Part shown: positions 60,666 to 62,283 of the stretch, piece by piece
Numbering within the stretch: position 1 is the stretch's first letter
Layout: each line of letters opens with the position of its first letter
Source of the DNA: Escherichia coli
GTDB taxonomy: Bacteria; Pseudomonadota; Gammaproteobacteria; Enterobacterales; Enterobacteriaceae
NCBI RefSeq assembly: GCF_030013595.1
Contig: NZ_CP122768.1
Direction: 5' to 3' (one strand)
Length of the DNA stretch: 64,000 nucleotides
The notes under the pieces: model-generated
The model's input: the letters and a program-made list of their open reading frames with translations, nothing else
Databases searched by the model: none
What the model was told of the DNA's origin: nothing
Translations under genes and position numbers: made by a program

Positions 60666-60720
60666 AGAAAAGCCCCGAGTGATATTTTACTATCAACCCG
60701 AGGCCCCCTATATGCAGAAC
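60666..60720 (-). ncRNA. sokC: Predicted SokC antisense RNA of the hokC/mokC type I toxin-antitoxin locus
   Basis: Placed by analogy to the K-12 arrangement (antisense to the mokC start); coordinates approximate, not read from a recognisable promoter. Confidence 0.3.
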
Positions 60721-60921
60721 ACATGTAGAGTGCCTCTTACTGACCGTAAGGTCAAGGAGAAGAGAGCAATGAAGCAGCATAAGGCGATGATTGTCGCCCT
60801 GATCGTCATCTGTATCACCGCCGTAGTGGCGGCGCTGGTAACGAGAAAAGACCTCTGTGAGGTTCACATCCGAACTGGCCAGACGGAGGTTGCTGTTTTC
60901 ACGGCTTACGAATCCGAGTAA
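60679..60921 (+). CDS. hokC: mokC reading frame with embedded HokC toxin (hokC = 60769..60921, 50 aa)
   Basis: ORF ends MKQHKAMIVALIVICITAVVAALVTRKDLCEVHIRTGQTEVAVFTAYESE, the Hok-family toxin sequence. Confidence 0.85.
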   Translation: MIFYYQPEAPYMQNTCRVPLTDRKVKEKRAMKQHKAMIVALIVICITAVVAALVTRKDLCEVHIRTGQTEVAVFTAYESE

Positions 60922-60941
60922 GAGCAACGGCGGGGAGTGAT

Positions 60942-62283
60942 CCCATAAGCGCTAACTTAAGGGTTGAACCATCTGAAGAATGCGACGCCTCGGTGCCTCG
61001 TTAAGACGATGCCTCGCGTTCTTCAATTGCGTTTTGTAGGCTGTCAGGGATACTGTCCCACGAATGGCCACCTGTAAGCTCCAGATGACCATTTTTGTTA
61101 TTCTCCACAACGAGTTAGTTCTTCTTTTCGGATCCGGCACTTCTGGGGGGAAATCCAGCGATGGCTGGATTATGTCGTCAATTAAAAATGCGGCGAGTAG
61201 ATTAGCAAATATCCACGCTTTCGCGAGTTCAGGTTCCTTTGCACGCAAAGCATCCAGGTGCAGCAAACTTTTGAGCCGCTTAAAAGCCAGTTCAATTTGC
61301 CATCGCAGACGGTAACAATCAGCCACTTGCTCTGCTGAATATTCATCTTCCGGTAATGATGTTAGCAATAGCACATGGCCCGCTGCTTCCAGCGTTTCCG
61401 CCTGAACTACTCGTCCTTTTCGACGATTCTCGCTGAGCAGTCGGGTTTTACTGATTAATGCTTTTTCGGGAGGAAGTGATACGGCAATGAGACGTGCCGG
61501 AAAGGGAGCTCCGGCTTTTTTATTACCTGAATTGCCTATCATTACAGTGGTTTCACCGTTCTTACCGCAATCCAGCCCGCGCAGAAAACCCATCATGTCA
61601 AAGCGCATTCCTTCTGCAGTTAACCAGCGCAATCCTCGCCAGTGAACCCGGACGATATAATCAGCTTCTCCAAAAGCAAGTGAGCGGATACATTCGGGAC
61701 GCGAACCGAATCCCCGGTCAGCAATGCGTATCTCGTCTGCCGTTTGCGCAAATCGGTCCAGCCGTTCAGCGTCTCTGCTGTCGGTTAGCTCAAAATCAGT
61801 GAACTGACAGGTATGAGGATCATATCCCATATGTAGTCGCCATTCAGCGCTGCCGCCCCCGGGCGCACTGATTGCTGTTCCATCGACAAGACGCAATCTC
61901 TTTCCGCTTGTACAACCCGTAACTGCGGCGCGTACAGCAAGTGTTTGTGCGGCAAGTATGCCAAACCAGTCGGCGGCATTCCGCAGCCGCTTCAGGAGAG
62001 CCACGTCAGATAATGTTGCAACGTCATGGAGCTGAGCCCATGCAGTGACTTCACGTAATGACATCCCCCCGGGGCCGTAAGCCAGCCCCAGACGTAGCAG
62101 AGTTGCAGCATCACGAATTTCGCGGCGGCGGGTTAGAGCCCCGGCATTACGTGCCGAAGTATCCAGTTCTTCGGGCTTACCAATATGGGCCAGAATTGCT
62201 GACCAGTTATCGTGAGAGTAATTCATCGGCACGTTAAATCATATCAGGCGTAATACCACAACCCTTAAGTTAGCGCTTATGGG
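60942..62283 (-). mobile_element. IS186 insertion sequence (about 1.34 kb)
   Basis: Terminal inverted repeats CCCATAAGCGCTAACTTAAGGGTTG (60942..) and CAACCCTTAAGTTAGCGCTTATGGG (..62283); GAGTGATCCCC-type G/C-rich flanks; encodes IS186 (InsL-type) transposase. Confidence 0.9.
60952..62226 (-). CDS. IS186 transposase with altered, extended C-terminus
   Basis: ORF MNYSHDNWSAILAHIGKPEELDTSARNAG... recognised as IS186 transposase up to ...SLDFPP, then continues 56 further codons (EVPDPKRRTN...) to within 10 bp of the IS end. Confidence 0.85.
   Translation of the reverse strand: MNYSHDNWSAILAHIGKPEELDTSARNAGALTRRREIRDAATLLRLGLAYGPGGMSLREVTAWAQLHDVATLSDVALLKRLRNAADWFGILAAQTLAVRAAVTGCTSGKRLRLVDGTAISAPGGGSAEWRLHMGYDPHTCQFTDFELTDSRDAERLDRFAQTADEIRIADRGFGSRPECIRSLAFGEADYIVRVHWRGLRWLTAEGMRFDMMGFLRGLDCGKNGETTVMIGNSGNKKAGAPFPARLIAVSLPPEKALISKTRLLSENRRKGRVVQAETLEAAGHVLLLTSLPEDEYSAEQVADCYRLRWQIELAFKRLKSLLHLDALRAKEPELAKAWIFANLLAAFLIDDIIQPSLDFPPEVPDPKRRTNSLWRITKMVIWSLQVAIRGTVSLTAYKTQLKNARHRLNEAPRRRILQMVQPLS

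Follow-up and report, generated by a model that had tools for sequence, protein, structure and literature searches.

IS186 behind the hokC toxin gene of an Escherichia coli strain: a separate insertion into a preferred target hairpin, with probable loss of mRNA closure

We analysed a 64,000-nucleotide (nt) stretch of Escherichia coli DNA (RefSeq assembly GCF_030013595.1, contig NZ_CP122768.1), hereafter the window, in which a copy of the insertion sequence (IS) IS186 lies just behind the type I toxin gene hokC. At its right end, the window carries the dnaK-dnaJ / hokC / nhaA region of E. coli, which here runs as the reverse complement of K-12. The hokC (gef) gene is intact (60769-60921, + strand) and encodes a protein of 50 amino acids that belongs to the Hok/Gef family, since it covers the entire Pfam profile PF01848 HOK_GEF (positions 1-42; E=1.8e-24; 85.5 bits against a cut-off of 22). 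This protein is identical to HokC/Gef of K-12, and the alignment showed that the hokC DNA is the same in K-12, in the IS-bearing genome KOr019 and in the pig isolate HCP5S3_I2, where the locus is uninterrupted. An earlier reading of this DNA, made from the letters alone (the sequence-only reading), had already described the toxin open reading frame (ORF) as intact, and this holds; the start that it gave to the locus, 60679, is the first GTG of a mechanically delimited ORF. Codon 47 of hokC (60907-60909) is TAC in a UACG context, and the TACG motif is present.

The regulatory parts that accompany a hok gene were also found. A mokC reading frame of 69 amino acids (60712-60921, + strand) contains hokC in frame, has the length of the annotated K-12 mokC and matches HOK_GEF over residues 25-66, and translational coupling of the two overlapping frames is predicted from this arrangement. 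The hokC mRNA leader (60619-60771, + strand) matches the hok/sok regulatory RNA family of Rfam (RF01794) over its full length (118.8 bits; gathering score, 59; E=6.5e-28), with its helices taken from RNA folds. According to the pairings in these folds, it includes a tac element (60619-60630, + strand) and a local, ucb-like tac partner (60670-60676, + strand). A putative -10 box of the hokC/mokC promoter (TATAAT, 60607-60612, + strand), identical in K-12, sits 6 nt upstream of the presumed 5′ end of the mRNA. The antisense antitoxin RNA sokC maps to 60662-60720 on the - strand, by transfer of the K-12 annotation (16952-17010) and alignment; its region differs from K-12 by three single-nucleotide polymorphisms (SNPs), all of which are common to the uninterrupted relative.

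IS186, a member of the IS4 family, is complete in the window (1,338 bp, 60944-62281, - strand), as judged from its inverted repeats, its transposase ORF and its alignment to K-12. The terminal inverted repeats are perfect over 23 bp (60944-60966 and 62259-62281), and no further copy of the repeat exists within the window, where chance would supply 0 matches. The DDE transposase ORF runs on the - strand from 62226 down to 60952; it carries the Pfam domain DDE_Tnp_1 and scores 132.7 bits against the NCBIfam model NF033592 (IS4-family transposase, cut-off 115), as expected of IS186. The sequence-only reading had correctly recognised an IS186 behind hokC, although it put the distance from the hokC stop at 20 bp, and the spacer read from the sequence is 22 bp (60922-60943, + strand). 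Comparison with the empty site in HCP5S3_I2, which reads GAGCAACGGCGGGGAGTGATCCCCGCCAC, showed that the target was a hairpin just after the stop codon, GGCGGGGA-GTGA-TCCCCGCC, which the element halves symmetrically. Its left half, GGCGGGGAGTGATCCCCGCC, lies at 60930-60943 (+ strand), and its right half, together with the right duplication copy, at 62282-62297 (+ strand). The 10-bp target duplication GGAGTGATCC, for which HCP5S3_I2 provides the uninterrupted sequence, occupies 60934-60943 on the left and 62282-62291 on the right (both + strand) and is nested in GGGGAGTGATCCCC, that is, in a G-run, a spacer and a C-run.

The arrangement is that of the K-12 MG1655 gef/hokC-IS186A locus (mokC b0018, hokC b4412, sokC b4413, insL1 b0016). 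Both junctions, the duplication GGAGTGATCC, the 22-bp insertion point and the orientation, with the transposase convergent with hokC, are identical base for base, so the junction difference that might have set the two loci apart is absent; the hokC coding sequence is also the same, and the IS matches at 1,338 of 1,339 positions, the sole difference being a 1-bp homopolymer deletion. Unlike K-12, the window has the three SNPs in the leader/sokC region, dnaJ alleles that differ from 215 bp outward, a 4.06-kb island between hokC and nhaA (125 bp in K-12) and a shortened G tract in the IS. This tract (61145-61150) is G6 in the window, versus G7 in K-12 and in 8/8 other sampled copies, and the change shifts the frame on the coding strand and alters the predicted C-terminus of the transposase, which would have 424 amino acids, against 370, and stop 8 nt short of the IS end. 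The exact G6 version of IS186 occurs in 145 of 2,718 IS186-bearing records, some K-12 assemblies among them, and could reflect either recurrent slippage or a sequencing error in the homopolymer.

We examined why the element sits at this very position. The preference of IS186 for targets made of a G-run and a C-run is established, and all three copies in K-12 lie in GGGG-N6-CCCC hairpins with GG-N6-CC duplications, namely at hokC (duplication GGAGTGATCC), at hokE (GGAGTAATCC) and in the nupC terminator (GGATAATTCC). The lon promoter is reportedly another insertion hot spot of IS186, as SaiSree et al. 2001 are said to have described; the site reads GGGGGAAACATCCCC in K-12 and, like the hokC site, is a recurrent one in which a G-run is followed by a short spacer and a C-run. 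Insertion there is said to disrupt the promoter and to give a selectable Lon-deficient phenotype, whereas the hokC insertion falls in a hairpin of the 3′ untranslated region (3′-UTR) and has no known selectable phenotype. The post-stop hairpin of hokC, with its left half GGCGGGGAGTGATCCCCGCC, is a perfect GGGG-N6-CCCC target, cut symmetrically and with GG-N6-CC duplicated, and it is the sole such site in the window once IS186 is removed. Hence, IS186 is found here because the GC-rich post-stop hairpin matches its preferred target, and, as the target is palindromic, the same position is hit in either orientation; in 9/9 sampled insertions, covering both orientations, the 22-bp spacer and the duplication are alike.

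To define what the insertion does to the mRNA, the uninterrupted hokC transcript was reconstructed by joining 60619-60943 to 62292-62369 (403 nt) and then folded. In the hok family, closure of the full-length mRNA by tac and the fold-back inhibition (fbi) element keeps it inert until slow trimming of the 3′ end activates it (PMC9841398). In the reconstructed mRNA, the tac element (60619-60630) pairs with 62318-62330 (+ strand), which this pairing marks as the fbi element, with pair probabilities of 0.945-1.0. A GC-rich hairpin followed by a T run (62343-62365, + strand), which forms the terminal hairpin of the minimum-energy fold and is the likely hokC mRNA terminator, stands between the fbi element and the dnaJ stop (62373). 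A promoter/terminator scan of 60450-62450 flagged neither the hokC promoter nor this hairpin, which has only 4 T. In the sequence-only reading, IS186 occupied the place of the fold-back element; this needs correction, as the element that it splits is the post-stop hairpin, and the fbi is neither covered nor deleted. Both fbi and terminator are intact and have been displaced by 1,348 nt toward the dnaJ side, so that in the window no fbi is contiguous with the mRNA body within the usual length of about 400 nt, the element being beyond IS186. The same reading had allowed for an intact fold-back element upstream of the IS, and folding found none there: neither the 22-nt spacer nor the initial ~360 nt of IS186 offered a substitute fbi. 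For every interrupted transcript with its 3′ end between 60943 and 61300, the predicted partner of the 5′ end is 60670-60676; this pairing is the Rfam model's first helix and corresponds to the open form. The best tac-complementary site inside IS186 (~62054-62100, -18.8 kcal/mol versus -18.3 kcal/mol for the native fbi) was considered as a surrogate fbi and rejected: it is 1.1 kb downstream, past the point where transcripts are reported to end, and a GC-rich 14-mer would find such a match by chance.

These folds suggest how the insertion might act. Without IS186, the first 12 nt of the hokC mRNA (tac) would pair with the fbi about 50 nt past the stop codon and close the molecule; the element separates the mRNA body from the fbi and terminator by 1,348 nt. 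Transcripts ending inside IS186 would be unable to close, and their 5′ end would fold onto the local partner, giving the open form that SokC could reach. Since closure would be impossible for such transcripts, the stable pool of inert mRNA, and any delayed activation of the toxin, would probably be lost, with the toxin ORF and the SokC antitoxin remaining intact. The K-12 gef mRNA has been reported to end within IS186, with its fbi disrupted (PMC3562002), and inactivation of hokC by IS186 is a published inference for K-12 (PMC3562002, PMC2654758), with which the predicted folds are consistent. Silencing of hokC by IS186 is a plausible consequence.

The same logic can be followed at related loci. 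At K-12 hokE-IS186B, the element entered the homologous post-stop hairpin, GCGGGGAGTAATCCCCGC, 21 bp past the hokE stop (22 bp in the window hokC), with the duplication GGAGTAATCC, and an fbi-like element again lies on the far side. The reconstructed hokE mRNA has the equivalent 5′-3′ pairing, in which a U-A pair of hokC is replaced by C-G, a compensatory change. Unlike the window, this is a paralogous toxin gene at another chromosomal locus, and the IS points the other way with respect to the hok gene. The hok/sok system of plasmid R1 shares with the window hokC the overlapping mok and hok frames, the cis-antisense Sok and the tac/fbi closure, which for hokC is predicted in the IS-free reconstruction (PMC9841398). 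It differs in that the window hokC is chromosomal and has its fbi separated by an IS, and in that chromosomal hokC reportedly confers no post-segregational killing even when free of the IS (bioRxiv 10.1101/2025.08.07.668861).

We then examined the flanks of the insertion. The window differs from uninterrupted HCP5S3_I2 at 56 of 61,339 aligned positions (0.09%) and from K-12 at 1,216 of 51,395 (2.4%), the latter differences being evenly spread and leaving no K-12-like block. To the right of IS186, the window equals HCP5S3_I2 over all 1,719 bp, whereas K-12 alleles appear from 215 bp and those of IS-bearing KOr019 from 60 bp; to the left, K-12 differs from 228 bp outward. The flanks are thus those of HCP5S3_I2 and do not carry the K-12 haplotype. 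In HCP5S3_I2 and the other closest complete genomes (four, among the matches listed) the site is empty, and their chromosome records hold no IS186. As judged from these sequence comparisons, the window insertion is a separate and recent event, which was not inherited or recombined from a K-12-like ancestor. A similar picture was obtained elsewhere in the species. The sequence type 131 (ST131) strain 5506 has the K-12-type insertion, and at least 20 genomes with 100.0% identical 1,500-bp flanks have an empty site; the K-12-identical junction is also present in B2 strains, which combine it with a divergent allele of the island. At least four independent events are documented, namely the K-12 type, ST131 5506, the window lineage and the insertion in the opposite orientation.

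Taken together, the best explanation, to which we give a probability of roughly 80%, is that a type I hokC/mokC/sokC locus was hit by the target-specific IS186 in an independent event and that the closure of its RNA was probably lost. Some points weigh against this explanation. In the minimum-energy fold of a hypothetical 1,751-nt read-through transcript, the tac-fbi pairing is kept, so that folding kinetics and termination within IS186 decide whether closure is lost. An IS-free hokC, that of ECOR24, reportedly shows neither post-segregational killing nor activation by rifampicin (bioRxiv 10.1101/2025.08.07.668861), and there may have been little hokC activity left to lose. Finally, a K-12-like donor could, in principle, have supplied the element on a very short recombined segment whose arms measure at most 215-228 bp.

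The frequency of the arrangement was determined in 5,426 complete E. coli genomes, using strict 2.1-kb or 180-nt queries with a coverage of at least 80%. The hokC site could be classified in 5,395 of the 5,426 genomes: it is empty in 3,815, carries IS186 in the orientation of the window and K-12 in 669 and carries it in the opposite orientation in 911, so that ~29% of genomes are occupied. The opposite orientation is borne out by the annotation of ATCC 8739, 720632 and 2013C-4991. Junction queries of 160 nt gave 840 and 953 genomes, which are upper bounds, because such queries can also pick up hok::IS186 junctions of paralogues; when the hokC and hokE queries are aligned to each other, the match covers 75-76% of the query, which is under the 80% threshold. 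The occupancy census at hokC is solid. Many genomes also have the homologous hokE hairpin occupied, in one or the other orientation, a qualitative statement only, given that the three states there total 6,228, more than the 5,426 genomes, probably through the counting of paralogous hokE-like loci. In some genomes, an additional IS150/IS3-family element was seen in the hokC-dnaJ interval, with or without IS186, and this interval collects several kinds of IS. The census may be useful for studies of the decay of chromosomal hok genes and for typing by IS186 sites.

Such high occupancy raises the question of whether more than target preference is at work, either because silencing of hok is beneficial and selected or because the hok 3′-UTRs are safe harbours to which the element has adapted by evolution. 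IS186 was found in 2,163 genomes, and in ~73% of these (1,580/2,163) one copy is at hokC; insertions at the homologous hokE site likewise occur in both orientations, and the toxin ORF is spared by every insertion. However, the same class of motif is hit outside hok genes, in the nupC terminator and, going by the title of SaiSree et al. 2001, in the lon promoter, and the motif alone explains the position. Moreover, the IS-free hokC studied in the preprint cited above reportedly shows no killing phenotype. We therefore find an explanation of the hokC and hokE occupancy by selection or safe harbours improbable. The related proposal that the post-stop hairpin of chromosomal hok genes is the principal home of IS186, with selection to uncouple the fbi and terminator, or safe harbours, as possible causes, fares slightly better and is still doubtful. 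IS186 downstream of hokC, a textbook feature of K-12 from the late 1990s onward, is an ordinary arrangement that recurs through target-site specificity.

A further alternative is that the junction is identical by descent with that of K-12, the strain being a mosaic or recombinant, or sharing recent ancestry with K-12 at the locus. The identity of junction, duplication and orientation, and an IS that differs by 1 bp in 1,339, would fit such a history. Against it stand the flanks, which are non-K-12 from 215 bp on the right and 228 bp on the left, and the even 2.4% divergence over 51 kb with no K-12-like block. The same junction is, besides, present in B2 genomes and in ST131 5506, a strain with 100%-identical relatives in which the site is empty. 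The target is also so specific that independent events should give identical junctions, as the agreement of 9/9 sampled insertions indicates. Descent from K-12 is thus largely refuted and, in our view, very unlikely. The sequence-only reading had taken the combination of the nhaA-hokC island with the IS186 insertion as informative about ancestry or as a sign of a mosaic; this does not hold up, with flanks that are non-K-12, an island present in 1,271 of 5,426 genomes and a site that is occupied in ~29% of genomes and in both orientations. More generally, a K-12-identical IS junction is not a marker of ancestry or mosaicism when the target of the element is highly specific. That the insertion is ancestral to the window lineage and was lost from its empty-site relatives by precise excision is hardly credible: the 10-bp direct and 23-bp inverted repeats could allow rare slippage-mediated excision, but the four closest complete genomes among the matches listed are all empty with no IS186 on their chromosome records, which would need several independent excisions and the loss of every other copy, and among ST131 genomes with 100% flank identity the empty site prevails overwhelmingly.

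The island between nhaA and hokC (56487-60545, 4,059 bp, three ORFs) has no counterpart in K-12, where blastn showed 125 bp in its place, in agreement with the sequence-only reading. All three ORFs are on the - strand. The first (56501-57781, 426 amino acids) matched no Pfam domain, and NCBIfam gave only a short IS1/IS1595-type zinc-binding N-terminal motif at residues 80-111; it always travels with the other two, identified by family search as a sulfatase (57875-59404) and a Tsx/OmpK-like channel (59388-60149). The island occurs in 23% of the complete genomes (the 1,271 mentioned above), always as a single chromosomal copy and with alleles of 86%-99.8% identity, and it looks like an old presence/absence polymorphism and not a strain-specific acquisition. 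Just upstream of the start codon of the Tsx/OmpK-like channel, a 6-bp tandem duplication (AATATG, 60152-60157) is absent from HCP5S3_I2 and KOr019.

Other differences were observed along the window. A complete IS10 (1877-3205, 1,329 bp, with a 402-amino-acid IS4-family transposase and the 9-bp duplication CGCCTGGCG) interrupts polB, the gene of DNA polymerase II. No other segment of the window, IS186 apart, is missing from HCP5S3_I2, the closest complete genome, and K-12 lacks this IS10 too. Between folA and apaH, the segment 17039-17680, also absent from K-12, corresponds to a chromosomal ccdA/ccdB by coordinate transfer from a near-identical relative; this type II system is the second toxin-antitoxin presence/absence polymorphism in the window. 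K-12 has nothing but IS1A in the interval from rpsT to nhaR, which in the window holds espX1 together with a fimbrial operon of the chaperone-usher type (47438-53942). In the annotation of the close relative, usher and chaperone are pseudogenes, and the usher region of the window is also split, with an ORF of 603 amino acids (50658-52469) followed by a gap.

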